Positions 38,138 through 64,000 of a stretch of 64,000 bases of DNA are shown here, one piece after another. The number at the start of each line of letters is the position of its first letter. Position 1 is the stretch's first letter. The position numbers were made by a program, and so were the translations under genes. The DNA comes from Bacteroidaceae bacterium (GTDB taxonomy: Bacteria; Bacillota; Clostridia; Peptostreptococcales; Anaerovoracaceae): contig CAVCML010000052.1 of the NCBI GenBank assembly GCA_963603335.1, positions 5,665 through 69,664 of the forward strand, given 5' to 3'. The notes beneath the pieces were generated by a model. It did not search any database. It saw only the letters and a list, made by a program, of their open reading frames with translations, and was not told where the DNA came from.

Positions 38138-39172
38138 ATGAAACTGGAAACGGGAAAGCTGGACAGTGAACTGTTAAAGAAGCTGGTGTTTGACAGGATT
38201 ACATACCGCAGTGACGATGTGAGCATACGTCCGGGAATAGGCGAGGACTGTGCGGTCATGGACTTTGGAGATTATGACTGCATCATGTCGACTGACCCGA
38301 TAACATCGGCGATAAGCGATATAGGCCGCCTGGCCATTCATATCACGTGCAATGACATCGCATCCAACGGAGTGCAGCCGCTGGGAATCATGCTGGCGGT
38401 AATGCTGCCGGAGGGTACGACATCGGAGGATGTAGCTTATATCATGGGGCAGGCAGCGGAAACTGCAGCGGATGTAAAGGTGGAAATCATCGGCGGTCAC
38501 ACGGAGATTACGCCAGCGGTGAAGCAGCCGGTCATCGTCTCCACGGCCATAGGCAAGGCGCTCAAGGGCGTTTCGCAGAGCGGCAACGACATGGTGCCGG
38601 GTGATTTTATCATGATGACCAAGGCGGTGGGGCTGGAAGGTTCGGGAATTATCGCATGTGATTACGAGAAGCAGCTTTCCGGTGTTCTTTCTGCAAAGGA
38701 GCTGGCGAGGGCAAAGTCGTTTTTGAATCTGGTGAGCGTTGTGCCGGAGGGTATCGCGGCAGGTACGGTGGGTACTCACGGCATGCACGATATTACGGAG
38801 GGCGGTATTCTGGGAGCTGTATGGGAGATGTGTCAGATTTCCGGACGCGGAGCACAGGTGTGGAAAAAAGAAATTCCGATAGAAACTGAGACGGCGAAAA
38901 TCTGTGATTATTATGATATCAATCCGCTGCGTCTGATTTCAAGCGGATCCATGGTGATTATAGTCCCAAAGGAAAAAAAGGACCGGATGGAAGCAGCTAT
39001 GGCACAGGCAGGCGTTTCCTGCAGCATCATCGGCCGCATCGAAGAAGCTGATTTCGGCATCCGTCTTTCGGAAGGCAGCGCACCGGCAGAGGAAGCGTCC
39101 GTTTCGCCGGAAAGCATGGCAGAGATAGATCCACCGTATATGGACGAGCTGTATAAGGTGGTTGGGAAGTAA
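38138..39172 (+). CDS. AIR-synthase-related (PurM/ThiL/HypE-fold) protein
   Basis: GEDCAV, STDPIT and IGGHTE segments are typical of the PurM-like superfamily. It starts 2 nt after ligA. Confidence 0.6.
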   Translation: MKLETGKLDSELLKKLVFDRITYRSDDVSIRPGIGEDCAVMDFGDYDCIMSTDPITSAISDIGRLAIHITCNDIASNGVQPLGIMLAVMLPEGTTSEDVAYIMGQAAETAADVKVEIIGGHTEITPAVKQPVIVSTAIGKALKGVSQSGNDMVPGDFIMMTKAVGLEGSGIIACDYEKQLSGVLSAKELARAKSFLNLVSVVPEGIAAGTVGTHGMHDITEGGILGAVWEMCQISGRGAQVWKKEIPIETETAKICDYYDINPLRLISSGSMVIIVPKEKKDRMEAAMAQAGVSCSIIGRIEEADFGIRLSEGSAPAEEASVSPESMAEIDPPYMDELYKVVGK

Positions 39173-39298
39173 CTGAAAAAAGTACTGATAGGAAAATGAG
39201 AAAAGAAACTATAGATCTGAATGTAAATAAATGCATTCGGATCTTTTTTTGTTATGTAGAAATGTATACAGCAAAGGCTTAAATAAACAAAATGTTTA

Positions 39299-39374
39299 TA
39301 TTCAAAAATGAATACCAATACGAAAAATGTCAATTTGGAAATGAATCACAGAACTCAGATATTCAAAAATGAAT
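39299..39374. promoter_or_regulatory. Candidate enhancer (UAS) boxes for the sigma54 activator, operon 1
   Basis: Perfect palindromes TATTCA-AAAA-TGAATA (39299-39314) and ATTCA-AAAA-TGAAT (39361-39374), about 198 and 137 nt upstream of the -24 element. The same motif recurs upstream of the second sigma54 promoter. Confidence 0.55.
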
Positions 39375-39497
39375 GAAGCGAGAAATGAGAAACTTTTCAG
39401 AATGTTTCTCGTGTTCAAAAAATAATACATGCGGAAGCGTTGAAATCTCAATGTTTTGCAAAAAATATCGAAAAAACAAAAAAAGAATTTGAGAAGT

Positions 39498-39513
39498 TGG
39501 CACGCGTGTTGCT
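39498..39513 (+). promoter_or_regulatory. Sigma54 (-24/-12) promoter, operon 1
   Basis: TGGCAC-GCGTG-TTGCT is an exact TGGCAC-N5-TTGCW match, 57 nt upstream of the ATG at 39570. Confidence 0.8.
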
Positions 39514-39569
39514 TTATATGAAGGCGTAAAGGAAAACATGGTGAAAACGAAATCGGAGGACTAATCAAG

Positions 39570-40766
39570 ATGACTGATTGCAAAAAACCGCTTGAGGGAT
39601 TAAAAGTATTAGATTTTACAAGAGTATATTCAGGACCGTACTGCACTATGATGCTCGGCGACCTGGGTGCCGATATCATAAAAGTAGAGCGAAAGGGTGT
39701 TGGTGATGAAACGCACTTCTTCGCGCCGATGAAAAATGATGAAAGCGGATATTTCGCTTACTTCAACAGAAATAAAAAAAGTCTGACTCTGGATCTTAAA
39801 GCTCCGGAGGCAGTGGAACTCATAAAGGATCTGGCTGAATGGGCAGATATCGTAGTAGAGAACTTCTCACCGGGAGTTGTGAATCGTCTGGGAATCGGAT
39901 ACGAGGATCTTAAAGAACGGAATCCGAAACTGATTTACGGTTCCATCTCGGGATTCGGTCAGACAGGACCGTATATGAAGAAGCCGGCTTACGATGTTGT
40001 CTGCCAGGCTATGGGCGGATTCATGTCGCTGACAGGCGAAAAGGACGGCAAGCCTTACAAAGTAGGTCCGTCGGTAGTTGACGCTCTTGCCGGAATTCAC
40101 ATGGCATTTGCCATAATGGCGGCCATCCACCACAGAGACAAGACCGGTGAAGGACAGTTCATCGATGTCGCTATGATGGACACGGCATTCTCGGTTCTGG
40201 AAAACTTTGTCGTAACAAAGACGTTGACCGGTGAAGCACCGACGAGAAACGGAAACGCCAATCTGGGATCCGCTCCGTTCAATACATTCAGAACGAAGGA
40301 CGGATATGTAGCTATCGCCTGCGCAAACAACGGCCTCTTTACAAAGCTGACAAAGGCCATCGGCAGAGAAGATCTCCTGGAAGTACCGGAGTACGCCGAA
40401 AATCATCTGAGAAAAGCTCATGAAGATACGCTGAATCCGGAAATCGAGAAATGGACTATGGAGCGTACGGCAGCAGAGGCAGTGGAAATTCTTGATGCCG
40501 CAAAGGTTCCGGTAGGTCCGATACTGGGAATCGACGATCTGGTGGAAGATCCTCAGATTAAGGCAAGAGATATGCTGGTGGATATCGATCATCCGATACT
40601 CGGCAAGGTGACATATCCGGGAAATCCGCTTAAATTCTCCGAAACTTCGGAACTGAGCTTTGAAAGAGCTCCGATGCTTGGAGAGCACAATGATTACATA
40701 CTAAAAGAAATATTGGGATTTGATGATGAAAAGATTGAGCAGTTAAAAGAGAAAGAAATCTTTTAG
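39570..40766 (+). CDS. Type III (CaiB/BaiF/Frc-family) CoA-transferase
   Basis: 398 aa. N-terminal hallmark LEGLKVLDFTRVYSGPYCTMMLGDLGADIIKVE. Confidence 0.9.
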   Translation: MTDCKKPLEGLKVLDFTRVYSGPYCTMMLGDLGADIIKVERKGVGDETHFFAPMKNDESGYFAYFNRNKKSLTLDLKAPEAVELIKDLAEWADIVVENFSPGVVNRLGIGYEDLKERNPKLIYGSISGFGQTGPYMKKPAYDVVCQAMGGFMSLTGEKDGKPYKVGPSVVDALAGIHMAFAIMAAIHHRDKTGEGQFIDVAMMDTAFSVLENFVVTKTLTGEAPTRNGNANLGSAPFNTFRTKDGYVAIACANNGLFTKLTKAIGREDLLEVPEYAENHLRKAHEDTLNPEIEKWTMERTAAEAVEILDAAKVPVGPILGIDDLVEDPQIKARDMLVDIDHPILGKVTYPGNPLKFSETSELSFERAPMLGEHNDYILKEILGFDDEKIEQLKEKEIF

Positions 40767-41167
40767 CATAAAGAACATGCTTTGAGGAGTGCTGCAAAAA
40801 ACTATTACATTTATTCACTGCGGACACTCGAGTAAGTCGTAACAGACAGGACTCCTGCAAAGCTGCGTTCGGAAAACAAATAAATTTGTCTCCATTTATC
40901 CATGTATGTCATTAATACGAAGTGCGCAGCCTGCATTTCGCAGGCTGCAGCTTCAGATGGCATATAAAGATAATTAATATAAATTATAACATTACACATA
41001 AATAACTTAGCAAATTAACTAACTTAAGAGACATTCTTAACTTAATTTAGTACTCCTTTTTTAGGTATCCGATAAATTATTTTGGAGAAGGTTCGTCGGA
41101 TATCTAAAGCAGGAGACAGAAAAGTCGTTCCTGAAATGTAACCGTCAATATAAAAGAGGAGGAGCAT

Positions 41168-41932
41168 ATGGATTTTTCGTTAAAAGAAAAGACTGCGATT
41201 GTAGTCGGAGGAAGCAAAGGTCTGGGCTTCGGTATGGCAACGGGACTTGCGAAAGCGGGAGCCAATGTTGTTCTGGTAAGCCGAAACCAGGGACAGTTAG
41301 ATGATGCAGCTGCAAAGATTTCTCAGGAAACCGGAAACGCCAACGTTGTTGGTTTTGCAACGGATATCACATCAACAGAAAACATCAACGGCCTTATTGC
41401 AAAGGTTTGTGACAAGTTCGGACAGATTGATATTCTGTTCAACGGAGCAGGCGTCAATAAGCGTTTCTCTGCTCTGGAATTCACTGAAGAAGATTGGGAC
41501 ATCGTACAGGATACGCAGCTGAAATACGTATTCTTCATGTGCCAGGCAGTAGCGAGACAGATGGTGGAAAAAGGCATCAAGGGAAAGATTATCAATATCG
41601 CTTCTCTGACAAGCGAGCTGGGACTGCCTAATATGATTTCATACTGCGCAGCTAAAGGTGCAATCGTACAGATTACAAAAGCTATGGCCAATGAATGGGC
41701 TCAGTACGGCATCAATGTAAATGCCATCGGACCGGGATACTATGAGACCGAGATGACTGCACCGCTCTTTGCAGATGAAAAACGCAGAGCAGAACTCTTT
41801 GCAAGAATCCCGCAGAAGAGATTCGGATTACCGTCCGACCTGGCAGGAGCCGCAGTATTCCTGGCTTCAGAAGCATCGGACTATGTAACGGGACAGGTGT
41901 TATATGTAGACGGAGGATTCCTCTGTTGTTAA
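41168..41932 (+). CDS. Short-chain dehydrogenase/reductase (KduD/gluconate-5-dehydrogenase-like)
   Basis: Cofactor motif VVGGSKGLGFG, plus NGAG and the catalytic YCAAK. Confidence 0.85.
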   Translation: MDFSLKEKTAIVVGGSKGLGFGMATGLAKAGANVVLVSRNQGQLDDAAAKISQETGNANVVGFATDITSTENINGLIAKVCDKFGQIDILFNGAGVNKRFSALEFTEEDWDIVQDTQLKYVFFMCQAVARQMVEKGIKGKIINIASLTSELGLPNMISYCAAKGAIVQITKAMANEWAQYGINVNAIGPGYYETEMTAPLFADEKRRAELFARIPQKRFGLPSDLAGAAVFLASEASDYVTGQVLYVDGGFLCC

Positions 41933-41985
41933 TCCATACAAACAATATATTTAATCGCTTTTAGCAAAAAAGGAGAGTAAACAAA

Positions 41986-43422
41986 ATGATGAATGGAAAT
42001 GAGTACAAGGAAAGTTTAAGAAAAATCCACCCGACGATTTATTACATGGGTGAAAAGATTGACTGCGTGGTAGATCATCCGATGATTAAGCCGCACGTAA
42101 ATTCTGCAGCAATGACATATGATCTGGCTTGCGATCCGATGTATGAGAACCTGATGACAGCAACTTCTCATCTGACAGGCAAGAAGGTAAACCGTTTTAC
42201 GCATATTCACCAGAGCATTGAAGATCTGGTAAACAAAGTAAAGATGATGAGAATGATTGCACAGAAGACAGGTACATGCTTCCAGAGATGCGTAGGCTTC
42301 GATGCAATGAACGCAACTTTCATCACTACTTATAACATGGACAAGAAGTACGGCACAAACTACCACGAAAGATTCAAGAAGTGGATGACATACGTACAGG
42401 AAAACGATCTCATGATCGCAGGTGCTATGACTGACGTTAAGGGCAACAGAAGCCTGAAGCCTTCCAAGCAGGCAGATCCTGACCTCTTCACTCACGTTGT
42501 TGAAAAGAGAGAAGACGGTGTTGTAATCTGTGGTGCAAAGGCTCACATGACAGGTATGGCAAACTCCCACGAAATGCTGATTCTGCCGACAACAAATCTG
42601 TTGGAAGATGACACGGATTACGCTATCGCATGTGCGGTTCCTGTAGATGCAGAAGGTATCACTCACATCTTCGGAAGACAGACAAACGATCAGAGAAGAC
42701 TGCAGGGCGACCTGGATACAGGTAACTCCGAATATGCTATCGTAGGCGGCGAAACACTGACGGTTCTGGATCACGTATTCGTTCCTTGGGACAGAGTATT
42801 CATGTGCGGAGAAGTTGATTTCGCTCAGGACTATGTAGCAAGATTTGCAGCATATCACAGACAGAACTACGGCGGATGCAAGGTTGGTAACTCCGATGTT
42901 CTTATCGGCGCTACTTCCATGATCGCTAAGATGAACGGAACCAGAAAGAACAGCCTGATTAAGGATAAGCTTACAGAAATGATTCATCTGGCAGAAACAA
43001 TGTACTGCTGCTCCCTGGCTTGCTCTTATGAAGGTGTTAAAGAAGAAGCCGGAAGCTATTATGTAAATACATTACTGGCTAACGAAGTTAAGCTCAACTG
43101 CACCAGAAACATGTATGAGATTTCCAGACTGGCTCACGATATCGCAGGCGGATTTATCGCAACGCTGCCTCACGAGTGGGATCTGAACAATCCGGAAACA
43201 GGCAAGTGGATTGAGAAGTTCTTCGTAGGAAATGAAGAGTACACGGCAAGAGACAGAATCAAGATCGCAAGACTTCTTGAAAACATGTCCGGCGGTACTG
43301 CTCTGGCAGAGTCCATGCACGGCGCAGGTTCCCCGCAGGCTATGAAGGTAATGATTCTGAGAGAATCCAACGTAGAACAGAAAGAACAGTTCGCAATGGA
43401 TCTGGCACACGTGAAATTATAA
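41986..43422 (+). CDS. abfD: 4-hydroxybutyryl-CoA dehydratase / vinylacetyl-CoA isomerase (AbfD)-type FAD/[4Fe-4S] enzyme
   Basis: 478 aa. It is collinear with C. aminobutyricum AbfD as I recall it. All four cluster ligands are conserved: CFQRC (C98, C102; nt 42277-42291) and YHRQNYGGC (H291, C298; nt 42856-42879). Confidence 0.85.
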   Translation: MMNGNEYKESLRKIHPTIYYMGEKIDCVVDHPMIKPHVNSAAMTYDLACDPMYENLMTATSHLTGKKVNRFTHIHQSIEDLVNKVKMMRMIAQKTGTCFQRCVGFDAMNATFITTYNMDKKYGTNYHERFKKWMTYVQENDLMIAGAMTDVKGNRSLKPSKQADPDLFTHVVEKREDGVVICGAKAHMTGMANSHEMLILPTTNLLEDDTDYAIACAVPVDAEGITHIFGRQTNDQRRLQGDLDTGNSEYAIVGGETLTVLDHVFVPWDRVFMCGEVDFAQDYVARFAAYHRQNYGGCKVGNSDVLIGATSMIAKMNGTRKNSLIKDKLTEMIHLAETMYCCSLACSYEGVKEEAGSYYVNTLLANEVKLNCTRNMYEISRLAHDIAGGFIATLPHEWDLNNPETGKWIEKFFVGNEEYTARDRIKIARLLENMSGGTALAESMHGAGSPQAMKVMILRESNVEQKEQFAMDLAHVKL

Positions 43423-43560
43423 TTTCAATCACAGCATCGCGCCGGATTAACCAACCGGCGTGATGATCTGATATATTTAAAGTTTAGCAAACGCGGGTGT
43501 AAAAAATGATTTTAGAGAAAGTCTGCTAATTGGAACGCAGCACAGAATGGAGGAAGAACA

Positions 43561-44742
43561 ATGAATGAAGTTGTAATAGTAGAGGGGGTCAGAACCGCTA
43601 CCGGCGTGTTCGGAGGCTCATTAAGTAAAATTCCGGCACCGGTACATGGCGCAGAATGTGTAAAAGCGCTGGTTGAAAGAACAGGAATAAAGCCTGAGGA
43701 TATCGATGAACTGATTATCGGAACTCACTTCCAGGCAGGAACAAAAGCTAACCCGGCTCGTCAGTGCGGTATCTATGCAGGTCTGCCGGATACGATCCCG
43801 GCATTCACACCGAACAAGAACTGTGCAACAGCCATGAAGGCAATGCAGTGCGCAGCACAGTCCATTCAGGTTGGTGACAATGAAGTAGTAATCGCAGGCG
43901 GCTGCGAGACTATGAGTGCAATCCCTTACATCCTGCCGAAGGCAAGATTCGGATACAGAATGGGACCGGGAAAAATCGAAGACAGCATGCTTCATGACGG
44001 ACTCGTTGACCCGTTCATGAACTACCACATGGGTATTACAGCAGAAAACGTAGCAGAAAAATGCGGCATCACCAGAGAAATGCAGGACAGATTTGCTGTA
44101 AACAGCCATAACAAAGCGGAAAAAGCATGGGCTGAGGGGAAATATGACAATGATATCGTGCCTATTACAACGAAGGTAAAGGGACAGGAAGTCGTATTTG
44201 ACCACGATGAAACATATAGAAAAGACGCAAAGTATGAGAACTTTGCAAAACTGAAGCCTATCTTCAAAGAAGGCGGAACAGTAACAGCAGGAAATGCTTC
44301 CCCGATCAATGACGGATCGTGCGTGCTGCTGATGATGTCGGCAGAAAAGGCAAAGGCGCTTGGTTACAAGCCGATCGCTAAGTACATTGCAGCAACGTCA
44401 ACAGCTCTCAGTCCATCTATCATGGGATACGCACCGGTAAGCGCTGTTGAAAAACTGGAAAAGAAGACAGGAATCAGCCGTTACGATGTAGGTCTTTATG
44501 AACTGAACGAAGCGTTTGCAGCTCAGGCAGCAGCATGCGTACAGGATCTGAAGCTGGATCCGGAAATCGTAAACGTAAACGGCGGCGCAGTAGCTTTGGG
44601 ACACGCTGTAGGATGTACCGGAGCAAGAATCAGCTTGACTCTGATGCGTGAAATGCAGAGAAGAAAGGTTCAGTACGGAATCGCTTCACTGTGCATCGGC
44701 GGCGGACAGGCTATGGCAATGATGTTTGAACTGTGCGAATAA
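43561..44742 (+). CDS. Acetyl-CoA acetyltransferase (thiolase II)
   Basis: 393 aa. Active-site contexts NKNCATAMKA, GNASPINDG, NGGAVALGHAVGCTG and CIGGGQ. Confidence 0.9.
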   Translation: MNEVVIVEGVRTATGVFGGSLSKIPAPVHGAECVKALVERTGIKPEDIDELIIGTHFQAGTKANPARQCGIYAGLPDTIPAFTPNKNCATAMKAMQCAAQSIQVGDNEVVIAGGCETMSAIPYILPKARFGYRMGPGKIEDSMLHDGLVDPFMNYHMGITAENVAEKCGITREMQDRFAVNSHNKAEKAWAEGKYDNDIVPITTKVKGQEVVFDHDETYRKDAKYENFAKLKPIFKEGGTVTAGNASPINDGSCVLLMMSAEKAKALGYKPIAKYIAATSTALSPSIMGYAPVSAVEKLEKKTGISRYDVGLYELNEAFAAQAAACVQDLKLDPEIVNVNGGAVALGHAVGCTGARISLTLMREMQRRKVQYGIASLCIGGGQAMAMMFELCE

Positions 44743-44760
44743 TAATTTGGAGGAATCAGG

Positions 44761-45615
44761 ATGACTGTTAAAAAATTATATGTCGTAGGTTCCGGAGCAA
44801 TGGGCTCCGGAATCGCACAGACAGCGGCAACTCATGGTATTCAGGTTACTATGAATGACATAAATGAAGAATTTGTTGCAAAAGGTTACAACAAAATCAA
44901 GAAGAGCCTGGAAAAGGCTGTTACAAAGGGCAGAATGACAGAAGAAGCTAAAGAGGAAGCACTTGCAAACTTGACAACTACAGTCTCGCTGGAAGATGCA
45001 AAGGATGCTGATTTTGTTATCGAAGCTGCATCGGAAAACAAGGAAATAAAGCTGGGAATCTTCAAGCAGTTAGATAAAATCTGTAAGCCTGAAGCAATCC
45101 TTGCTTCCAACACATCTTCTCTGCCGATTACAGAAATCGCAGCAGCAACCGAAAGACCGGATCAGGTAATCGGAACTCACTTCTTCAACCCGGTACCGGC
45201 TATGAAGCTGCTGGAGATCGTAATGGGACTTCAGACATCCGAGACAACTTATCAGGCAGCGCTGGCTCTGGGAGAGCAGCTGGAAAAAGTGCCTGTAAAG
45301 GCAATGGACAAAGGCGGTTTCATTGTAAACAGACTGGTTGACCCGTTCATCAATGAAGCGGTATTCATGCTTGAAGAAGGCGTTGGTACTGCAGAAGATA
45401 TCGACAACGGCTGTAAGTTCGGACTCAACCACCCGATGGGTCCTCTTGCATTAGGCGATATGATCGGTTGGGATGTTATGCTGGCGGTTATGGACGTACT
45501 GTATTATGAATACGGTGATCCTAAGTACAGACCGGCACCGCTGATGAGAAGAATGGTAAGAGCTGGACATCTCGGTGTTAAAACCGGTAAAGGTGTTTAT
45601 GATTATTCGAAATAA
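44761..45615 (+). CDS. hbd: 3-hydroxybutyryl-CoA dehydrogenase
   Basis: [13 protein letters not shown] Rossmann motif, NTSSLPITE, and GFIVNRL. Confidence 0.9.
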
Positions 45616-45626
45616 TGAGGTGTGTT

Positions 45627-46406
45627 ATGGAATATAAGAACATTATTTTTGAAAAGAAAGACGGTATCGGCTACGTTACAATGAATCGTCCTAAAGCTCT
45701 GAATGCTTTGAATACAGACGTTTTGACAGAACTGGATGATGTGTTCCGTGCAATTGATAAAGACGATGAAGTTCAGGTTGCAATTGTAACCGGAGAGGGA
45801 AGATCTTTCATCGCAGGTGCTGATATTGCACAGATGAGCGACCTGAACGGCACAGAGGGCCGCGACATGACAATCCAGGGTCAGCTGGTAATGGAACTTA
45901 TCGAAACTATCAACAAGCCTGTTATCGCTGCGGTAAACGGATTCGCTCTTGGCGGCGGAAATGAACTGGCTATGGCATGCGACATCAGAATTGCTTCCGA
46001 AAAAGCTAAATTCGGTCAGCCGGAAGTAAACCTGGGAATTATTCCGGGATACGGCGGAACACAGAGACTGCCGCGCCTTGTCGGAAAAGGTATGGCAAAG
46101 AAGCTGATCTACAGTGCAGAGATGATTGATGCACAGGAAGCTTACCGCATCGGTCTGGTGCAGGAAGTTGTACCGGCAGAAGAGCTTATGGAAGCTGCTG
46201 AAAAGCTGGCAAAGACTATCATGAGCAAGGCTCCGATTGCTATCAAGATGGCAAAGGTTGCTATCAATAACGGACTGAGCACAGATCTGAAGACAGGCGT
46301 ACAGTTCGAAGCGGAAGCTTATACGAGCACATTCGTATCCGAAGACAGAGTAGAAGGTATGAAGGCGTTTGTAGAAAAGCGTCCGGCTGAATTTAAAAAT
46401 AAATAA
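45627..46406 (+). CDS. crt: Enoyl-CoA hydratase (crotonase)
   Basis: YVTMNRPKALNAL, FIAGADI and GGGNELAMACDIRIA motifs. The ATG follows GAGGTG. Confidence 0.85.
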   Translation: MEYKNIIFEKKDGIGYVTMNRPKALNALNTDVLTELDDVFRAIDKDDEVQVAIVTGEGRSFIAGADIAQMSDLNGTEGRDMTIQGQLVMELIETINKPVIAAVNGFALGGGNELAMACDIRIASEKAKFGQPEVNLGIIPGYGGTQRLPRLVGKGMAKKLIYSAEMIDAQEAYRIGLVQEVVPAEELMEAAEKLAKTIMSKAPIAIKMAKVAINNGLSTDLKTGVQFEAEAYTSTFVSEDRVEGMKAFVEKRPAEFKNK

Positions 46407-46473
46407 ACGAGAACGCTACAGCGGAAAGAGATACTCTTTTTCCGAAAAATAATTTTGAACCTTTCCTTAAAGT

Positions 46474-46510
46474 AAAAGATGCCGGTCTGTTAAAGAACTC
46501 GGCATCTTTT
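46474..46510. terminator. Bidirectional terminator between crt and the sigma54 activator gene
   Basis: Stem AAAAGATGCCG / CGGCATCTTTT, flanked by A- and T-runs. Confidence 0.7.
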
Positions 46511-46532
46511 ATTTATAGAAACAAATGCAGTT

Positions 46533-48347
46533 TTACTCTATTCCATCGGGGAACAGCTCTTTATATTTTCGAAAGAATGTCGGTTGGCTCATGTCAAGCA
46601 ATGCAGCAGCTTTATAGGTGGAGCCGCCCTGCCTCATGGCACGTTGAATTAATTCTTTTTCCATGTTTTTCTTGGCTTCGGCATAGGTCGGCAAGGTATC
46701 GGATGCTAAAATATTCGATGTTTTCATTTCTGAATTATGAAATTCCTGCTTCACTGTAAATTCCGGTGCAAACGGGGCATCGAGAATATTGTCATCGGCA
46801 AAAACGAATTGTTTTTCAATGAAATTTTTTAATTCGCGAATGTTTCCCGGCCAGTCATGGTGCTGCAGATGCTGGATGAAATGCGGGGTCATGATTTTGT
46901 GTGCGCCGTATTTCCGGTTCAGATCCTGCAGCGATTTTTCTGCCAGATCGGGTATATCGTCCCTGCGGTCGCGCAGCGGCGGGATGTTGATGGACACCAC
47001 ATTGAGGCGGTAATATAAATCGCTTCGGAAGGTTCCTTCCTCAATCATTTCTTTCAGATTTCGGTTGGTGGCGGCGACGATGCGAACGTCGACTTTTTTG
47101 CTCTTCTGTCCGCCGACCCGGGTAACTTCTCGATCCTGCAGAACCCGCAGGAGGGCCGACTGGAGGTTGATAGGCAGCTCACCGATTTCATCCAGGAAGA
47201 GCGTGCCTGTATCGGCCAGTTCGAACATGCCGGGCTTTCCCTTGGCACTGGCTCCGGTAAAAGCTCCGGGAACGTAACCGAAGAGCTCTGATTCCAGCAG
47301 GTTTTGAGGAATTGCACCGCAGTTGATTTTGATATACGGTTTGCCGTCGCGCATGCTGTGTTTATGAATGTACTGAGCAACGACCTCTTTACCGACGCCG
47401 GTCTCTCCCAAAATCAATACGGTTGAATCCATGCGTGAAATTTTTTCCGCCATTGCAAGTACAGCGGAGAATTCATTGCTGCTGCAGACGATGTTTTCAT
47501 GTGAAGATTCCTGCATAAGCTGGCTTTTATATAAATCCGCACGATCCGTTTCAACCTGAAGTTTTTTGTTCAGGCTGATAATCTCGGTGATATCGCGAAC
47601 GTTGGTGATTACATTGCGGACATTTCCGTTGTTGTCAAATACAGGGCTTCCGGTGATGAATACCTCTTTGTTGTTTGAATTCGTCTGTGTGCGGGTTATT
47701 ACCTCCTTGCGTTTAACGACATCGTGCGTAATGCTTGTAGAGAGTATGCCTCGTGCGATAAGATCGTCCATATACTCACCGACAAGTTTTGTGCGGGGTA
47801 TACCGGAAATTCGTTCGTATGCTTTGTTGACAAGGATTGTTTTGCCGGTGTAATCTGTGATATAGATGCCGTCATAAGAATTGTCAAGGATATCGCCGAG
47901 CAGATGTGCGTTTCTGAGATTTCTGTTGGTGCGCTCATCGTATATGTTTGCGTCGGTCAATTCGCAGAGATGGCTTACGACGGCGAGAATTTCATTATCG
48001 TGAACGAGAGGAATTCGTTCTGAATATACTTTTTTGTTTTTAAGCGTAAATTCCTTCGGAAGCGATGCAAGGTCGCCCGCTTTTGAGAAAGTGAAAGGGC
48101 ACAAAGGGAGCGTATTGTTTAAGTCATGATCAATCATCGATGATTCAGAGACCTCAAAAAGCGCAGCAGCCAGATAGTTTGCCATAACAATTCTGTTGTT
48201 GGAATCGATAGCGATGACAGCCATATTGGAAGCTTCAATGTATGAATCGGTAAAATCATTTATGATTTCAGGAAGCTCGGGACAGCTGCCTTTGTAATTT
48301 GGAAAAAACAGATTTAAGTACTCTGTAATGAATGTTTGTGAAATCAT
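46533..48347 (-). CDS. Sigma54-dependent transcriptional activator (PAS sensor domains, AAA+ domain, Fis-type HTH)
   Basis: Walker A GETGVGKE, the sigma54-contact loop GAFTGA (in YVPGAFTGAS), RVGG, and the C-terminal HTH YKAAALLDMSQPTFFRKYKEL. I chose the ATG at 48347, after GAGGTGG. Confidence 0.9.
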   Translation of the reverse strand: MISQTFITEYLNLFFPNYKGSCPELPEIINDFTDSYIEASNMAVIAIDSNNRIVMANYLAAALFEVSESSMIDHDLNNTLPLCPFTFSKAGDLASLPKEFTLKNKKVYSERIPLVHDNEILAVVSHLCELTDANIYDERTNRNLRNAHLLGDILDNSYDGIYITDYTGKTILVNKAYERISGIPRTKLVGEYMDDLIARGILSTSITHDVVKRKEVITRTQTNSNNKEVFITGSPVFDNNGNVRNVITNVRDITEIISLNKKLQVETDRADLYKSQLMQESSHENIVCSSNEFSAVLAMAEKISRMDSTVLILGETGVGKEVVAQYIHKHSMRDGKPYIKINCGAIPQNLLESELFGYVPGAFTGASAKGKPGMFELADTGTLFLDEIGELPINLQSALLRVLQDREVTRVGGQKSKKVDVRIVAATNRNLKEMIEEGTFRSDLYYRLNVVSINIPPLRDRRDDIPDLAEKSLQDLNRKYGAHKIMTPHFIQHLQHHDWPGNIRELKNFIEKQFVFADDNILDAPFAPEFTVKQEFHNSEMKTSNILASDTLPTYAEAKKNMEKELIQRAMRQGGSTYKAAALLDMSQPTFFRKYKELFPDGIE

Positions 48348-48365
48348 ATAAACCACCTCGTTTCA

Positions 48366-48374
48366 TGGTATAAT
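48366..48374 (+). promoter_or_regulatory. Possible extended -10 promoter for the small CGGC ORF
   Basis: TGGTATAAT (TGnTATAAT), 47 nt upstream of the ATG at 48421. Confidence 0.35.
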
Positions 48375-48420
48375 ATTGTATATGATTTAACAATTATATC
48401 ACAAATAGAGGAATGCGGAC

Positions 48421-48699
48421 ATGAATAATAAATATAGTATCGGAATATTGTTTTGCGGCGGATGCAATTGCTACTATGACAGAGAAAAATTTTACAGGGA
48501 ATTACAGGAAAATATGAAAGACGATTGTGTGTTCTCATATTACAGGGAGGAGTGTGAATACGATCTCGTTCTCATGATCAACGGATGCCAGTCGGAGTGT
48601 CTGATAGGACATGAATACGGTGCGGACAAACTTCTGATCAATAATAAAAATTATGAAAATGCGGAAAAGCTTATACGGGACGCACTTAAATATTCATAG
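48421..48699 (+). CDS. Small Cys-rich protein (92 aa) with a CGGC motif
   Basis: GILFCGGCNCYYD and NGCQSECL cysteine clusters. RBS GAGGAA is present. Function is unknown. Confidence 0.4.
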   Translation: MNNKYSIGILFCGGCNCYYDREKFYRELQENMKDDCVFSYYREECEYDLVLMINGCQSECLIGHEYGADKLLINNKNYENAEKLIRDALKYS

Positions 48700-48854
48700 A
48701 TGAATACAAAACGGATTCAAAAGTGAATCAGGATTCGTTATTGAATTTTGAATAAATGAAAATTTCAGAAAGAATAAATGCCCAAATGAAACCCGTTGAA
48801 ATCAGACGGTTTCAGCGCCTATTCATTTTGAAATAAATAAATTGAATAATGAAT
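48691..48854. promoter_or_regulatory. Candidate enhancer (UAS) boxes for the sigma54 activator, operon 2
   Basis: Perfect palindromes TATTCA-TAGA-TGAATA (48691-48706) and GATTCA-AAAG-TGAATC (48714-48729). Degenerate copies lie at 48740-48753, 48821-48834 and 48841-48854. Confidence 0.55.
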
Positions 48855-48857
48855 AAT

Positions 48858-48873
48858 TGGCACGCAATTTGCG
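48858..48873 (+). promoter_or_regulatory. Sigma54 (-24/-12) promoter, operon 2
   Basis: TGGCAC-GCAAT-TTGCG, 101 nt upstream of the ATG at 48974. Confidence 0.75.
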
Positions 48874-48973
48874 ATATATATTGGCGGCGCCAAAAGAAAG
48901 TTATTATAATTGACATTTTATTTATTTCAGAAGAATCAGAAATCGTTTATTTGGAATTGAGAAAGGAAAAAGT

Positions 48974-50437
48974 ATGAGTACACAGAACAATAATCTGGAA
49001 CGCCAGACTTTTGCCAAAACTCTTGGTAGAGGAGAAATTTGGGCATTCGCCTTCGGATCTGTAGTAGGATGGGGCTGGGTAATGCTCGCAGGAGGCTGGG
49101 TAAGTTCAGCCGGAAGTGTTGGAGCTATTATAGCATTCGTAATTGCAGGACTTGTTTGCGGATTTATCGGAATGGCATTTGCAGAGCTTTGCCCTATGAT
49201 TCCTCAGACAGGAGGCGTATTGGTATTTGCTTACAGAGCAGGTGGATATAAATTCGGCTGGTTCGCAGCGTGGGCGATGGCATTCGCTTATATCGCAGTA
49301 GCATGCTGGGAAGGTCCGGCGTTCGGAAGTGCGGTGGAATATCTGATTCCGCAGCTTACAAACAATGCGGATGTTCTTTATTCTATTGAAGGATATGATG
49401 TAACTCTGCCATGGGTTATCATCGCATTGGCAGGTACTGTATTCACAATCATTTGCAACTGGATCGGCATGAGCTTTGCTAAGATTGTAAACACAATCGC
49501 AGCACTGGCACTGGTAGCCGGTGGTTTAATCTTCTTCTTCGGAGGTGTAACATTAGGTGATGTTTCCAACGCTCTGCCTGCATTCAACAGCGGCTTCAGC
49601 GGCATATTTATCGTACTTATGGCTGCACCGGCTATGTTCGTTGGATTCGACGTTATTCCGCAGTCGGTAGAAGACATGAAGATTCCTATGAAGCAGGTTG
49701 GTAAAATGGTTATTTTGGCAATCGTGCTCGGAGCAATCTGGTACATCCTGATGATTATAGGATCCTCTTTCGGCGCACCGGCATCATTCCGTGACAACGC
49801 AAGCATCCCGGTAGCTGATATCGCTACTTATGTATTTGGATCCAAGATCTTCGGTTCATTCGTTATCATCGCAGGTATCGGCGGCATCCTGACAAGCTGG
49901 AACGCTATGTACATCGGGGCTACAAGAATCCTCTTCGCACTTGCAAGAGCTAAGATGCTTCCGCCTGTATTCAGCAAACTGCACCCTAAATACAATTCAC
50001 CTACAGCAGCTCTGATTCTGGTTGGAGCACTGGGACTGGCATCCGTATTCCTCGGCAAGAACGCACTGGGATGGTTCGTAGACGCAAGTTCCTTCGGTAC
50101 TGTAGTAGCATACTTCTGCGCAGCTTTGGCATTCTACAAGTTAAAGGTAGACGAACCGGATACAGAAAGACCGTTCAAGGCACCGTTAGGAAAGTTCATG
50201 GCTATCCTGGCTATCGTATCCTCCGGATTATTCATCTGCATCTACCTGCCGTTCAGCCCATCCGGTGGCCTGGGACATATGGAATGGATCATGGTTGCTC
50301 TGTGGACAGTAATCGGTATCATCCTCGCTATCAGCGTTCGCTGCAGCAGCTACTCCAAGGTTACAGCTGCTGAACGTGAATACCTGATCTTTGGTGAAGA
50401 ATATGCCAGAAAGTCTATAATAGACGCTGACAAATAG
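48974..50437 (+). CDS. APC-superfamily amino acid permease
   Basis: 487 aa, about 12 TM helices. It is the first gene after the sigma54 promoter. Confidence 0.8.
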   Translation: MSTQNNNLERQTFAKTLGRGEIWAFAFGSVVGWGWVMLAGGWVSSAGSVGAIIAFVIAGLVCGFIGMAFAELCPMIPQTGGVLVFAYRAGGYKFGWFAAWAMAFAYIAVACWEGPAFGSAVEYLIPQLTNNADVLYSIEGYDVTLPWVIIALAGTVFTIICNWIGMSFAKIVNTIAALALVAGGLIFFFGGVTLGDVSNALPAFNSGFSGIFIVLMAAPAMFVGFDVIPQSVEDMKIPMKQVGKMVILAIVLGAIWYILMIIGSSFGAPASFRDNASIPVADIATYVFGSKIFGSFVIIAGIGGILTSWNAMYIGATRILFALARAKMLPPVFSKLHPKYNSPTAALILVGALGLASVFLGKNALGWFVDASSFGTVVAYFCAALAFYKLKVDEPDTERPFKAPLGKFMAILAIVSSGLFICIYLPFSPSGGLGHMEWIMVALWTVIGIILAISVRCSSYSKVTAAEREYLIFGEEYARKSIIDADK

Positions 50438-50654
50438 TAACTTGATTAGATAAAACGTAAATATAAAAATTCATTCTAATGAAGAGAAAGCAGTCATGCA
50501 GTGACGTAAATGTTGCTGCATGGCTGTTTTCCTTTTGCATAAAAAAATATCGGTATGCAAGCGAAAAATCCTTGAAATCTAAACGCGTATGCACTATTAT
50601 GTACAATGTGGCGTGTATAATTATACATGCATGAGTAAACATCAGGAGGTTGTT

Positions 50655-50858
50655 ATGGCGGAAATTAAAGTGGATGTCAGCAGATGCAAAGGCTGTTTTT
50701 TATGTACAAGCGTTTGCCCTAAAGGCGTGCTGATACCATCGGACGAATTAGGTGTAAAGGGATTCCCTATCGTACACCGGGACGAGACTAAGGAATGTAT
50801 CGGATGCGGAGCCTGCTACAAAATGTGCGGCGACTACTGCATCGAGATTATAGATTAA
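50655..50858 (+). CDS. 2-oxoacid:ferredoxin oxidoreductase delta subunit (2x[4Fe-4S] ferredoxin)
   Basis: 67 aa from the ATG after AGGAGG. Motifs CKGCFLCTSVCP and CIGCGACYKMC. Confidence 0.8.
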   Translation: MAEIKVDVSRCKGCFLCTSVCPKGVLIPSDELGVKGFPIVHRDETKECIGCGACYKMCGDYCIEIID

Positions 50859-50872
50859 GAGGAGGCAGAATC

Positions 50873-51949
50873 ATGGCAAAAATATTAATGAAGGGAAATG
50901 AAGCCCTGGCTGAAGCCTGCCTTCGCGCCGGATGCAGATTTTTCAGCGGATATCCCATTACTCCGCAGACTGAAATTTTAGAGTATCTTTGCTGGAGAAT
51001 GGATGAAGTCGGCGGTACATGCGTGCAGACGGAATCCGAGCTTGCCGGCGTTAACATGCTGCTCGGCGCAGCATCGGCAGGTGCGCGTGCATTGACAACA
51101 ACATCAGGTCCGGGATTCTCGCTTAAGCAGGAAGGAATCTCATACCTTTGCGGCAGTGATGTGCCTGCAGTTATCGTAGACGTACAGAGAATAGGGTCTG
51201 CACTTGGCGATATTTTCATGGGACAGGGCGACTACTGGCAGTTGACCAGAGGCGGCGGCCACGGAGATTACAGAACTTTGGTTCTGGCACCGAACAGCGT
51301 GCAGGAGAGCGTTGACTTAGCAGGAGAAGCATTCGACCTGGCTGAGAAATATCGTCATCCGGTAATCATCGCCACAGATGCTACTATCGGCCAGATGATT
51401 GAACCTGTAGAACTCCCGGAGATGCATGAGCATGACATGGATCAATATGACTGGGCTATCAGACCTCGCCGGGAAGGCGAACCGCAGAGAGCTATCTGGA
51501 ACCGTTACTGGGATTGGGACTGGAAGGATACGTCCGTAGGCGGACATATGTATCCGAAGTATCTGCTGGACAAGTACGGCCGGATGGAGGAGACAGAGCA
51601 GCGCTGGGAGGAAGTGGAGACTGAAGATGCTGAGATTATTATGGTAGCTTACGGCACAAGTGCCAGAGTTGCCAAGTCCGCAGTTGCCCGCGCTCGCAAG
51701 GAAGGTATCAAAGCAGGCCTTATCAGACCTATCACGCTTTGGCCGTATCCTAAGAAAGCATTCGACAAACTGGGAAGTCAGGTTAAGGCAATTCTCGATG
51801 TAGAGAGAAACATTCTTGGTCAGATGAAGGATGATATCGTTCTGGCAACGGGCAATAGGCTGCCGGTTGAATTCTATGGTGAATACTGGGACAACATGAA
51901 CGAGATTAAGATGGTCGATATTGCCAGAGACATGCTGACAAGATATTAA
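50873..51949 (+). CDS. 2-oxoacid:ferredoxin oxidoreductase alpha subunit
   Basis: The N-terminus MKGNEALAEACLRAGCRFFSGYPITPQTE is typical of KorA/PorA/VorA. Confidence 0.85.
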   Translation: MAKILMKGNEALAEACLRAGCRFFSGYPITPQTEILEYLCWRMDEVGGTCVQTESELAGVNMLLGAASAGARALTTTSGPGFSLKQEGISYLCGSDVPAVIVDVQRIGSALGDIFMGQGDYWQLTRGGGHGDYRTLVLAPNSVQESVDLAGEAFDLAEKYRHPVIIATDATIGQMIEPVELPEMHEHDMDQYDWAIRPRREGEPQRAIWNRYWDWDWKDTSVGGHMYPKYLLDKYGRMEETEQRWEEVETEDAEIIMVAYGTSARVAKSAVARARKEGIKAGLIRPITLWPYPKKAFDKLGSQVKAILDVERNILGQMKDDIVLATGNRLPVEFYGEYWDNMNEIKMVDIARDMLTRY

Positions 51950-51961
51950 GGAGGTGCCTCA

Positions 51962-52702
51962 ATGAACTTTAAAATAAATAAAGATATCGACATGGACAAG
52001 CAGGCTTCCTGGTGTCCCGGATGCGGTCATGGCATTGTTTGCCGCGTTATCACTGACGCGGTAACAGAACTCGGCGTAAGCGGTAAAATTATCACAGTTG
52101 ACGATGTAGCGTGCGGCCAGTTCGGACAGTTCGCTATGAAATACAATACTGTTATGGGTGCGCACGGCAGAACCATTCCTACCGCTGCCGGTATTAAGAG
52201 AGTCAGACCTGATTCCCTGGTTATTGCACGTCCGGGTGACGGATCGGCGTACAGCATAGGTATTGAGTCAACATTGTACAGCGCAATTCGCAATGAGAAT
52301 ATCTTAGCAATCGTTATTAACAACAGCGTATTCGGCATGACAGGCGGACAGATGTCACCTACATCACTGCCCGGGATGAAGACTGCAACATCGCCTTTTG
52401 GACGTGATGAACGCAAGAACGGCAGCATGGTAGACATCTCCAAGATTCTGGCCGGAACCGATATGGCATATATGGCACGTGTAGCAGTTAATACACCTGC
52501 CAATACCGATAAGGCAAAGAAGGCAATCAAGAAGGCACTGGTAAAGCAGATGAACGGCGAAGGCTTCTGCCTGGTCGAGGTTCTCAGCATGTGCCCGACC
52601 AACTGGAAAATGTCCGAAATTGACGCTTGTGAATTCATAAAGACAACACAGAGTAAGTATCTCCCGTTAGGAGAGTTCATAGACAGAGAGGGGGATAAAT
52701 AA
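51962..52702 (+). CDS. 2-oxoacid:ferredoxin oxidoreductase beta subunit (TPP-binding)
   Basis: WCPGCGHG motif and GDGSAYSIG (a GDG-type TPP motif). Confidence 0.85.
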   Translation: MNFKINKDIDMDKQASWCPGCGHGIVCRVITDAVTELGVSGKIITVDDVACGQFGQFAMKYNTVMGAHGRTIPTAAGIKRVRPDSLVIARPGDGSAYSIGIESTLYSAIRNENILAIVINNSVFGMTGGQMSPTSLPGMKTATSPFGRDERKNGSMVDISKILAGTDMAYMARVAVNTPANTDKAKKAIKKALVKQMNGEGFCLVEVLSMCPTNWKMSEIDACEFIKTTQSKYLPLGEFIDREGDK

Positions 52703-53244
52703 TGAATGAGATAATCTGCTCAGGATTAGGAGGACAGGGTGTTCTCGTTGCCGGCATGATTTTAGCCGATATGGCTATGGAGGATGGCAAGAACGTTTCC
52801 TGGTATCCTTCATACGGATTCGAGATGCGCGGCGGTGCAGCCAACTGTGAGCTCAAAATCGGCGATGAGGATCTGCAAAGCCCGTATTGCCTGGAACCTG
52901 ATGTATTATATACACTCAGCGAATCGGCTATTGATTCGTTCGAAGACAGACTTAAGCCGGGCGGCGTACTGCTGGTGAATTCAAGCCTTACCAGCGATGA
53001 ACGCAAGTATCGTGATGATATTACGGTTATCAAGGTGCCGGCTACCGAGATTGCAAATGAACTTAAAAACGGACGCGGCACTAATCTGGTAATGCTGGGC
53101 GCCATGGCAGCTGCATCGGATTTATACGATGTAGAACAGATGCAGGCAGGCATTCGGAATTACTTCGGCAAGAAGGGCAAGAACAATCCTAAGAACGACC
53201 GGTGCTTTGAGCGCGGTGTTGAAGCGGCAAGGGGGCAGTTATAA
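52702..53244 (+). CDS. 2-oxoacid:ferredoxin oxidoreductase gamma subunit
   Basis: GLGGQGVLVAG motif. 180 aa. Its ATG overlaps the beta-subunit stop codon. Confidence 0.8.
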   Translation: MNEIICSGLGGQGVLVAGMILADMAMEDGKNVSWYPSYGFEMRGGAANCELKIGDEDLQSPYCLEPDVLYTLSESAIDSFEDRLKPGGVLLVNSSLTSDERKYRDDITVIKVPATEIANELKNGRGTNLVMLGAMAAASDLYDVEQMQAGIRNYFGKKGKNNPKNDRCFERGVEAARGQL

Positions 53245-53245
53245 T

Positions 53246-54472: not shown

Positions 54473-54495
54473 CAGCGATTATGAGACTTTAATCG

Positions 54496-56031: not shown

Positions 56032-56105
56032 CTTTGTATTTTTAGGGCGCGGTAATGCGCCGTCTGATATAATTGTTGAGTAAATTTTAATAAGAGGAGG
56101 CTAAT

Positions 56106-57284: not shown

Positions 57285-57328
57285 ATCGGATTAAGCTTTG
57301 TATTAAAAACAGAACAGAATAAAATCTC

Positions 57329-57353
57329 AAAAGCCAGTCGTTGACTGGCTTTT
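57329..57353 (+). terminator. Rho-independent terminator ending sigma54 operon 2
   Basis: Stem AAAAGCCAGTC / GACTGGCTTTT with a 3-nt loop. Confidence 0.8.
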
Positions 57354-57418
57354 ATAATGGAGAAAAACGGATGCGATTGTTAGTTGAATAATAAACTAAA
57401 TAAATTATATATTTGTGG

Positions 57419-63899: not shown

Positions 63900-64000
63900 T
63901 TAAATCAAATTCATATCCTTGTATTTGTTGTATTTTCGTGAGAATGTCGGCTGGCTGATTCCAAGCAGTTTGGCCGCTTCCTTGGTAGTTGAGCATTTTT
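63900..64000 (-). CDS. 3' end of a second Fis-type-HTH (probably sigma54-dependent) regulator, truncated by window edge
   Basis: My manual translation of the minus strand gives ...KCSTTKEAAKLLGISQPTFSRKYNKYKDMNLI*. This parallels the C-terminus of the 46533-48347 activator (STYKAAALLDMSQPTFFRKYKEL). Only 32 codons are visible. Confidence 0.5.
   Translation of the reverse strand, partial: KCSTTKEAAKLLGISQPTFSRKYNKYKDMNLI

Follow-up and report, generated by a model that had tools for sequence, protein, structure and literature searches.

A candidate sigma-54 enhancer motif shared by PAS-type activators, an AbfD operon and a permease gene in gut Clostridia

The question considered here is raised by a 64,000-nucleotide (nt) stretch of Anaerovoracaceae DNA (GCA_963603335.1, contig CAVCML010000052.1, positions 5,665-69,664, forward strand), which at its full length is referred to as the window. 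In it, a bEBP (bacterial enhancer-binding protein) gene lies between two sigma-54-type promoters, one in front of an operon (operon 1) coding for a homolog of 4-hydroxybutyryl-CoA dehydratase (AbfD) and the other in front of an amino-acid permease gene, and the palindrome TATTCA-N4-TGAATA recurs upstream of both. Is this palindrome the site from which the bEBP controls the two promoters and, if so, which genes belong to the regulon? In what follows the central activator is termed EBP1, its shorter paralog EBP2 and the activator of the Oscillospiraceae version EBP3. On the strength of the sequence comparisons presented below, we consider it probable that the palindrome is the upstream activating sequence (UAS) of a family of one-component sigma-54 activators with PAS, AAA+ and helix-turn-helix (HTH) domains, represented in the window by EBP1 and EBP2, and that it drives the AbfD operon and the permease.

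Dyads and -24/-12 boxes in the window and in related loci

The first-pass annotation had proposed a -24/-12 promoter ahead of operon 1 and another ahead of the permease. Both are indeed present, reading TGGCACGCGTGTTGC at 39498-39512 and TGGCACGCAATTTGC at 48858-48872, and they exceed chance expectation: the exact string TGGCAC-N5-TTGC occurs in the 64 kb only at these two places, against 0.14 expected, with one of 100 shuffles reaching two. Each has GG at -24 and GC at -12 with the fixed spacing of the TGGCAY-N5-TTGC pattern, and this pattern is kept at orthologous positions in the related loci. These loci (denoted by L or P numbers) were gathered by genome scan, protein search and context look-ups, have activators from 82% down to 47% identical to EBP1, and include Lentihominibacter faecis BX16 as well as Anaerovoracaceae metagenome-assembled genomes (MAGs). 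The 15-mer of promoter 1 is unchanged in L002 and L003 and differs by one base in L005, L008 and L010.

The dyad core ATTCA-N4-TGAAT is comparably restricted. Its four exact occurrences in the window (at 39300, 39361, 48692 and 48715) all fall in the two regulatory regions upstream of these promoters, as opposed to 0.17 expected over the 64 kb (none of 100 shuffles reached four) and 0.0024 expected from the base composition of the two spacers themselves. With up to one mismatch, 12 dyads are found where 5.35 would be expected, seven of them in the two regulatory regions, and the top seven matches to a position weight matrix of the dyad all lie within these regions, with dyad A of operon 1 (Table 1) scoring best. 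The initial proposal of two perfect copies of the palindrome per promoter is correct for the 14-bp cores, all four of which are exact, but not for the full TATTCA-N4-TGAATA, which is present just once per promoter (39299-39314 and 48691-48706): the copy at 39360-39375 ends in TGAATG and that at 48714-48729 reads GATTCA-N4-TGAATC. The degenerate copies that it had placed nearer promoter 2 do exist, at 48733, 48740, 48821 and 48841. Additionally, the operon 1 enhancer contains a middle site that had been overlooked, giving three sites at -198, -165 and -137 whose register is conserved in the relatives; that of dyad A is kept in L002, L003 and L005, and the position of dyad B reads ATTTAAAAATGAAT in L002 and L005 and ATCTAAAAATGAAT in L003. 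In the permease spacer, the TGAAT half of the promoter-adjacent dyad is retained in L003 and L005. Save for this promoter-adjacent site, which is centred at 10 bp, the dyads have their centres between 71 and 202 bp upstream of the -24 box, in agreement with the typical distance of clostridial UAS sites, which are usually multiple and situated 100-250 bp upstream of TTGGCATNNNNNTTGCT (PMC6615313). In multiplicity, distance and conservation alike, the dyads would thus fit the enhancer-like arrangement that had been suggested for them.

The association extends beyond the window. In a pooled set of 231.7 kb, comprising the window and eight related loci, an exact -24/-12 box follows 14 of the 16 exact dyads at a distance of no more than 250 bp, and the upstream zones so defined make up 2.1% of the sequence (P = 4e-22), and with the window left out the same is true of 10 of 12 (P = 1e-15), though both values treat related loci as independent and hence overstate the significance. 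The combination of TGGCAY-N5-TTGC with dyads of at most one mismatch recurs at three targets, i.e., the AbfD operon, the permease, and a divergently oriented pair of aminotransferase and CN-hydrolase genes. Alignments of the spacers show the dyads, the promoter and a few other blocks as islands amid diverged sequence, and both dyads and promoter are kept even at the loci with a single activator (L010, L012 and L013; activator 47-53% identical). The gene neighbourhood of the relatives places a CoA-transferase-SDR-AbfD-Thl-Hbd-Crt operon (SDR, short-chain dehydrogenase/reductase) on one side of EBP1, with a small Cys-rich open reading frame (ORF), a permease, EBP2, a class-III aminotransferase, a CN-hydrolase and a second permease on the other.

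Further evidence comes from a scan of a public metagenome collection with the pattern ATTCA-N4-TGAAT-N{94,124}-TGGCAY-N5-TTGC, which is blind to gene content. At least 80 loci matched and, among the matches listed, the next gene downstream is homologous to a pathway gene in 46: a crotonase in 40, and in the others a CoA-transferase, a class-III aminotransferase, a permease or Bcd. Among these listed pathway loci, 44 of 46 carry two or more dyads and 43 of 46 have the T..A flanks that the pattern did not demand. The remaining 34 listed matches include 27 with a single dyad, no ORF with a GAFTGA motif and mixed flanks, which behave as chance matches. The crotonase loci belong to Oscillospiraceae (Dysosmobacter welbionis/Oscillibacter) and have a layout in which rpoN and EBP3 are transcribed away from the dyads and, on the other side of these, the promoter leads into crt, a family I CoA-transferase gene, abfD and bcd. 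The 12 distinct families of Oscillospiraceae spacers (mean pairwise identity 43%) are GC-richer than, and unrelated to, those of the Anaerovoracaceae, and the only elements kept in them are a distal dyad that adjoins the start codon of EBP3, a proximal TATTCA-N4-TGAATA and TTGGCAC-N5-TTGCT. As the dyad is a conserved island in these GC-richer spacers, it is no by-product of AT-rich DNA, nor is it unlinked to -24/-12 elements, the circumstance that the first-pass annotation had named as fatal to its proposal; rather, it goes together with -24/-12 boxes and with bEBPs and, in Oscillospiraceae, with rpoN itself. Sequence evidence thus places the system in two orders of gut Clostridia, including the very common Oscillibacter/Dysosmobacter group. 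At two Oscillospiraceae loci (L083, 6987-9759, and L025, 2503-5326), rpoN comes immediately after the gene of the activator, whose start codon the distal dyad abuts; this suggests a self-contained, possibly autoregulated sigma-54 module dedicated to the crt-CoA-transferase-abfD-bcd operon.

Probable sigma-54 dependence and candidate proteins reading the dyads

The prediction of a bEBP gene with a GAFTGA loop between the two promoters holds up: EBP1 matches Sigma54_activat (PF00158, E 1.5e-71), a PAS domain and the AAA lid, and contains an exact GAFTGA. Its first ~145 residues give weak PAS matches only, and its C-terminus aligns with the clear HTH_8 of EBP2 (E 1.6e-8). EBP2, of which the window includes just the 3' end, is in the relatives a protein of ~465 amino acids (aa) with the order PAS-AAA+-HTH_8, and EBP3 (~475 aa, PAS-AAA+-HTH) is 37% identical to EBP1. 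The recognition helices of the three (EBP1, SQPTFFRKYKE; EBP2, SQPTFSRKYNK; EBP3, SQATAARKIAK) follow the common pattern SQxTxxRKxxK. Over 32 residues, the EBP2 fragment in the window shares 94% identity with its counterpart in L005.

Besides the inflated significance of the pooled counts, several observations weigh against the dyads being the UAS of these activators at sigma-54 promoters. RpoN was not found in the window or in the EBP1-type loci L002-L016, and since sigL is present in just 57 of 124 Clostridiales genomes (PMC6615313), sigma-54 is not to be presumed in this lineage. Sigma-70-like hexamers overlap the permease promoter region (48828-48857 and 48881-48910), and a second, sigma-70-type promoter is possible there. 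The C-terminal 79 aa of EBP1 score below the cutoffs of both HTH_8 (21.1 bits against 22) and HTH_50 (20.1 against 27). Further, L011, whose activator is 49% identical and has a similar recognition helix, shows no dyad even at two mismatches. Lastly, judging by the sequences of the two proteins, EBP1 and/or EBP2 may read the dyads in this organism.

The first of these points would be accounted for if the -24/-12 boxes were unused, as relics or elements with another purpose, and the genes were transcribed from sigma-A promoters, to which the hexamers near the permease promoter, including a conserved TATAAT in its leader, would lend themselves. Against this, the exact TGGCAY-N5-TTGC stays in place in every ortholog while the flanks diverge, the GAFTGA motif, which is required for contact with sigma-54 (PMC6615313), is intact in the activators, and rpoN adjoins the activator in the Oscillospiraceae version. 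Further, a scan of the region upstream of operon 1 found no sigma-70-like promoter directed at it. Hence, we regard transcription from sigma-A promoters alone as extremely unlikely, and infer from the intact GAFTGA activators and the conserved boxes that sigma-54 is present in this organism.

A more serious alternative concerns the identity of the protein on the DNA. The dyads could be enhancers to which EBP2 is the main protein bound, or which the two paralogs occupy jointly, mixed oligomers included, so that two signals would meet at one set of enhancers. The 3' end of EBP2 is found at 63900-63998, and the recognition helices of the two proteins are almost the same. In the relatives, the dyad precedes the class-III aminotransferase and CN-hydrolase promoters flanking EBP2, with the permease between both activator genes, and the sites of operon 1, the permease and the aminotransferase display no apparent class-specific difference. 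A precedent for two bEBPs at one promoter is given by the title of PMC10162802. However, both dyads and sigma-54 promoters are present at the AbfD operon and aminotransferase genes of L010, L012 and L013, where only an EBP1-type activator is seen in the available DNA. Hence, EBP1-type proteins do accompany the dyad, and the converse, i.e., an EBP2-only locus, was not found among the relatives examined, with P0110 again situated beside EBP1. Occupancy mainly or jointly by EBP2 is accordingly held to be quite possible, though short of probable. The link between the palindrome and EBP1 that was drawn at the outset can be upheld inasmuch as a bEBP gene is the one DNA-binding gene that was seen beside these sites in every case, but it is not exclusive, given a paralog with a near-identical recognition helix.

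EBP1 and EBP2 have different sensor modules to go with these near-identical helices. An extension of the above alternative would therefore have the two share one enhancer code and co-occupy the dyads, with a four-cysteine protein of the AF_0334 family, encoded next to EBP1, as a redox- or metal-sensing co-factor in a partner-assisted, two-input bEBP switch. We consider such an arrangement unlikely; if true, a single UAS would integrate two signals for GABA (4-aminobutyrate)/4-hydroxybutyrate fermentation in abundant gut commensals.

It might also be argued that the protein bound at the palindromes is a dimeric regulator unrelated to the bEBPs, for instance a repressor or a global factor of the CRP, Rex or CodY kind, and that the activators use other sites. 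The 6-4-6 geometry suits any HTH dimer, the absence of the dyad from L011 despite a similar helix is in keeping with this, and an RTTGAAA palindrome near -60 or the leader block AGAAAGTTATTATAATTGAC (see below) could be the true activator or co-regulator sites. Yet, the PAS-bEBP is the only regulator gene consistently found beside the dyads in two orders of Clostridia, the multiplicity of dyads at 71-202 bp upstream of the -24 box is an enhancer rather than an operator pattern, and the Oscillospiraceae spacers offer no other conserved UAS candidate. The dyad sequence is also not known to match the CodY, Rex, cre or FNR consensus. This makes an unrelated regulator highly improbable.

Under the favoured reading, in which the dyads are the UAS of the EBP1/EBP2 family, dimers of the activator's Fis-type HTH would bind the clustered dyads, of which 39498 is preceded by three and 48858 by four or more, and a small molecule at the PAS sensor would relieve the inhibition of the AAA+ domain. 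By analogy with GabR (see below), the ligand might be GABA, succinate semialdehyde or 4-hydroxybutyrate. The assembled oligomer would then loop to the sigma-54 RNA polymerase at TGGCAC-N5-TTGC, and ATP hydrolysis would open the promoter of two units: (i) the genes for the CoA-transferase, SDR, AbfD, thiolase, Hbd and crotonase, which could convert succinate semialdehyde/4-hydroxybutyrate via 4-hydroxybutyryl-CoA and crotonyl-CoA to acetyl-CoA; and (ii) the monocistronic amino-acid permease. The enzymes of operon 1 are 89-99% identical among the window, L. faecis and a Hadza MAG (L002 and L003), and the activator just 72-82%; the latter diverges mostly in its linker and in its N-terminal PAS-like domain, where orthologs share 24-51% identity, as against 65-86% in the HTH. 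This sequence pattern suggests either that the sensor module evolves rapidly or that strains have exchanged the operon.

How does this system relate to those already described? A reconstruction across 57 Clostridiales species yielded 39 EBP groups, among which PAS-type one-component EBPs are the commonest kind and many targets belong to butyrate-type fermentation and amino-acid catabolism (PMC6615313). The YctR and XanR groups of that study resemble the present system in having a one-component PAS-type EBP encoded beside its target, multiple 16-bp dyads of 6-4-6 format 100-250 bp upstream of a TTGGCA-N5-TTGCT promoter, and butyrate-type CoA-dependent fermentation targets that include abfD, crt and CoA-transferases, XanR serving an abfD operon. 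They differ in their consensus, which is TTCTCAAAAATGAGAC for YctR and GTTGCA-N4-TGCAAC for XanR; with half-sites of TTCTCA or GTTGCA as opposed to TATTCA, the likeness is one of site format and context and not of a group-specific UAS. The ATTCA-N4-TGAAT dyad is absent from Table S3 of PMC6615313, the Distribution column of its Table 1 does not have Anaerovoracaceae or Oscillibacter/Dysosmobacter among the hosts, and searches of the literature turned up no paper on the dyad, on this regulon or on any sigma-54 regulator of abfD besides XanR. The palindrome had been described as not a known motif, which is thus apt for its sequence but not for its 6-4-6 format, known from YctR and XanR.

GabR of B. 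thuringiensis is a sigma-54 activator of gabT whose PAS domain represses until GABA or succinate semialdehyde is present (PMC4279683). By analogy of architecture and context it is the closest experimental model for the system in the window: it has the PAS-AAA+-HTH order seen in EBP2 and EBP3, its gene stands beside a class-III (GABA-type) aminotransferase, and it binds repeats close to a -24/-12 promoter (PMC4279683). However, GabR serves the aerobic GABA shunt (gabT/gabD) rather than the AbfD fermentation route, its site consists of 21-bp inverted repeats within a 96-bp footprint (PMC4279683), and EBP1 differs from it by an additional PAS-like domain at the N-terminus and by its four-cysteine partner. 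In the relatives, EBP2 agrees with GabR in architecture and gene context; the window ends short of the point where the aminotransferase would be expected. PrdR, the proline reductase activator of C. difficile (NF041552), is the best-scoring named family for EBP1 and shares its overall architecture, but at 441 bits against a cutoff of 795 EBP1 does not qualify as an equivalog; no prd genes lie nearby, the neighbours being AbfD-pathway genes, and the catalogued PrdR sites are of the TGTCAAAAAAAGACA type and not of the dyad type seen here. The feature is real and widely conserved, yet the proposed switch is mechanistically ordinary among clostridial sigma-54 regulons: one more group would join those described and the general picture of such switches is unchanged. 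Its value lies in the assignment of a specific cis-regulatory code and activator family to the AbfD route (4-hydroxybutyrate/GABA to acetyl-CoA or butyrate), a code which can be used to predict regulon members from sequence alone and could aid the search for the sensed metabolite and for reporters of GABA/4-hydroxybutyrate consumption in the gut.

Probable target genes and extent of the regulon

The two operons had been taken to face outward from the activator gene. In fact both are on the plus strand, so that operon 1 runs toward the 3' end of the activator gene. On its upstream side, operon 1 is insulated from read-through by the strong intrinsic terminator of an AIR-synthase-like gene. Its AbfD homolog displays, in alignment with the C. 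aminobutyricum enzyme (PDB 1U8V), the [4Fe-4S] cluster-ligand motifs CFQRC and HRQ..GGC. With a crotonase, Hbd and thiolase following it, and a class-III aminotransferase in the same neighbourhood or operon in the relatives, this gene set resembles the 4-aminobutyrate pathway of C. aminobutyricum and fits a route from succinate semialdehyde/4-hydroxybutyrate via crotonyl-CoA to acetyl-CoA, in which the SDR and the CoA-transferase are, by their context, candidates for the steps before AbfD. In the canonical pathway, the CoA-transferase (AbfT) is of family I and AbfH is of the Fe-alcohol-dehydrogenase type. The presence in the window of a family III transferase and an SDR, neither of the canonical type, speaks against this assignment, as does the prospect that the substrate could be 5-aminovalerate/5-hydroxyvalerate or another omega-hydroxy acid. 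The Oscillospiraceae version, for its part, does have a family I transferase.

Operon 1 is interrupted by a 400-nt non-coding gap, which is 81-83% identical in L002, L003 and L005 and persists as blocks in L007. An 82-nt piece of it occurs upstream of alcohol dehydrogenase-SDR-AbfD genes in L006, and L010 and L013 are without the element. Indels break the ORFs inside the gap, and no Rfam match was found over 38900-49100, which covers both the gap and the leaders, at E <= 1. Two structures are predicted by RNAalifold, one a long hairpin with imperfect pairing and the other a stem of ~20 bp (CTCCTTTTTTAGGTATCCGAT…GTCGGATATCTAAAGCAGGAG) that is invariant but has a variable loop, with one compensatory pair only. 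The element may serve as an attenuator or processing site, or as a leader to which a protein binds. A repeat or miniature inverted-repeat transposable element was considered and rejected, in view of these indels in the ORFs and the absence of other copies from the DNA examined.

On the other side, the second unit had been extended over 48974-57284 and the whole described as a single 20-kb regulon. This is doubtful: a terminator-like hairpin (two sites of this kind were found against 0.2 expected) directly follows the permease gene, and sigma-70-like hexamers (50572-50600) precede the next gene, that of a ferredoxin. The permease is 94% identical and monocistronic in L003 and also stands alone in the other relatives, with its own terminator hairpin wherever the spacer was read, and it converges on the EBP2 gene where this is present. 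The right-hand sigma-54 unit is thus most likely the permease alone. In the window, ~13.5 kb (50438-63900) separate the permease from EBP2, as compared with just ~130-360 bp in the relatives, and contain in order a ferredoxin, the alpha, beta and gamma subunits of a 2-oxoacid:ferredoxin oxidoreductase (OFOR), a family III CoA-transferase (CoAT2), a BCCT transporter, a class I/II aminotransferase, an RnfB-like Fe-S protein, a pyruvate:ferredoxin oxidoreductase and a GltD-like oxidoreductase. As this block is missing from the permease-EBP2 spacers of the relatives, it is probably outside the regulon; those spacers are not homologous to the terminator region of the window, and the borders of the insertion could not be mapped by sequence. 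Membership of the OFOR-CoAT2-BCCT-aminotransferase genes in the regulon was rejected in view of the terminator, their own sigma-70-like promoter region and their absence from these spacers.

Table 1. Features of the window discussed in the text (positions in the window; negative distances are relative to the -24 box)
Feature	Position	Strand	Remark
Intrinsic terminator of upstream AIR-synthase-like gene	39213..39244	+	13-pair stem, then TTTTTTTG
Operon 1 dyad A, TATTCAAAAATGAATA	39299..39314	.	Perfect 16-mer; core starts 198 bp upstream of TGGCAC
Operon 1 dyad B, ATTTGGAAATGAAT	39333..39346	.	Degenerate; -165
Operon 1 dyad C, TATTCAAAAATGAATG	39360..39375	.	Perfect 14-bp core; -137
Palindromic element CGTTGAAATCTCAATG	39437..39455	.	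~59 bp upstream of -24 box; conserved
Sigma-54-type promoter 1, TGGCAC-N5-TTGCT	39498..39513	+	Predicted start near 39524
Family III CoA-transferase, candidate 4-hydroxybutyrate CoA-transferase	39570..40766	+	PF02515, E 5e-135
Conserved 400-nt non-coding intercistronic element	40767..41167	+	Two predicted hairpins; interrupts operon 1
SDR oxidoreductase, candidate succinate-semialdehyde reductase/4-hydroxybutyrate dehydrogenase	41168..41932	+	PF13561/PF00106
4-Hydroxybutyryl-CoA dehydratase/vinylacetyl-CoA isomerase (AbfD) homolog	41986..43422	+	1U8V, E 7.5e-167
Thiolase, 3-hydroxybutyryl-CoA dehydrogenase, crotonase	43561..46406	+	Family matches
EBP1, (weak PAS)-PAS-AAA+-Fis-type HTH sigma-54 activator, GAFTGA	46533..48347	-	Pfam matches
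92-aa four-cysteine protein, Pfam AF_0334 family (PF27236)	48421..48699	+	Conserved EBP1 neighbour; stop codon overlaps permease dyad 1
Permease dyad 1, TATTCATAGATGAATA	48691..48706	.	Perfect 16-mer; -166
Permease dyad 2, GATTCAAAAGTGAATC	48714..48729	.	-143
Two overlapping one-mismatch dyads, ATTCGTTATTGAAT and ATTGAATTTTGAAT	48733..48753	.	Conserved in L003 and L005
Hairpin CGTTGAAATCAGACGGTTTCAGCG, with the -60 GTTGAAAT element inside it	48794..48817	.	In permease spacer
Promoter-adjacent one-mismatch dyad, ATTGAATAATGAAT	48841..48854	.	Ends 4 bp before -24 box
Sigma-54-type promoter 2, TGGCAC-N5-TTGCG	48858..48873	+	Predicted start near 48884
Leader block GGCGCC..AGAAAGTTATTATAATTGAC, candidate operator	48887..48914	.	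Just downstream of predicted permease start
APC-family amino-acid permease, likely sole gene of right-hand sigma-54 unit	48974..50437	+	Alone in relatives
Terminator-like hairpin	50486..50531	+	20-pair stem and T-run; directly after permease gene
EBP2 3' end, cut by window edge	63900..64000	-	Last 99 bases encode C-terminus …LLGISQPTFSRKYNKYKDMNLI, then stop

Additional promoter-region elements and the four-cysteine protein

Apart from the dyads, both promoters have RTTGAAA(T) ~60 bp upstream of the -24 box, as a palindrome in operon 1 and inside a hairpin at the permease. At -85..-20, RTTGAAA is present in 12 of 23 dyad-bearing Anaerovoracaceae promoters, against a background of 0.05 each (P = 3e-10, uncorrected for relatedness); it is not evident by eye in the Oscillospiraceae spacers. 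By count, GTTGAAAT is not enriched in the window (4 against 3.9 expected), and only its position relative to the promoters is. The element might serve to bend the DNA or to bind a co-regulator, or else be a weak activator site in a proximal position. The leader block downstream of the predicted permease start is almost invariant in L003 and L005-L007 and contains the conserved TATAAT mentioned above. An inverted version of it, GTCAAT-N3-4-TAACTTTCT, lies downstream of the sigma-54 promoters of the class-III aminotransferase in L005-L007; since its direction with respect to transcription is reversed there, a DNA operator is favoured over an RNA element.

The small protein encoded beside EBP1 has four invariant cysteines (FCGGCN…NGCxSECL), and, of 15 EBP1-type contexts examined, 13 have its ORF next to the activator gene. 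The ORF is divergent to the activator in the close relatives and overlaps the activator 3' end in L012, L013 and the P0056 contig; it was not seen in L010 or L011 and is absent from the EBP3 loci. A confident AlphaFold model (pLDDT 84) predicts a small alpha/beta fold, for which the sole PDB sequence match was to an unrelated protein (E 1.2) and no significant structural neighbour was found. This protein may act alongside the activator, as an accessory or co-sensor. Between the two genes, a 73-bp spacer (48348-48420) contains an extended -10 element, TGGTATAAT, at 48366-48374 on the plus strand and a sigma-70-like TTGTGA-18-TACAAT on the minus strand. Accordingly, the activator and its small partner are probably transcribed by the housekeeping sigma factor.

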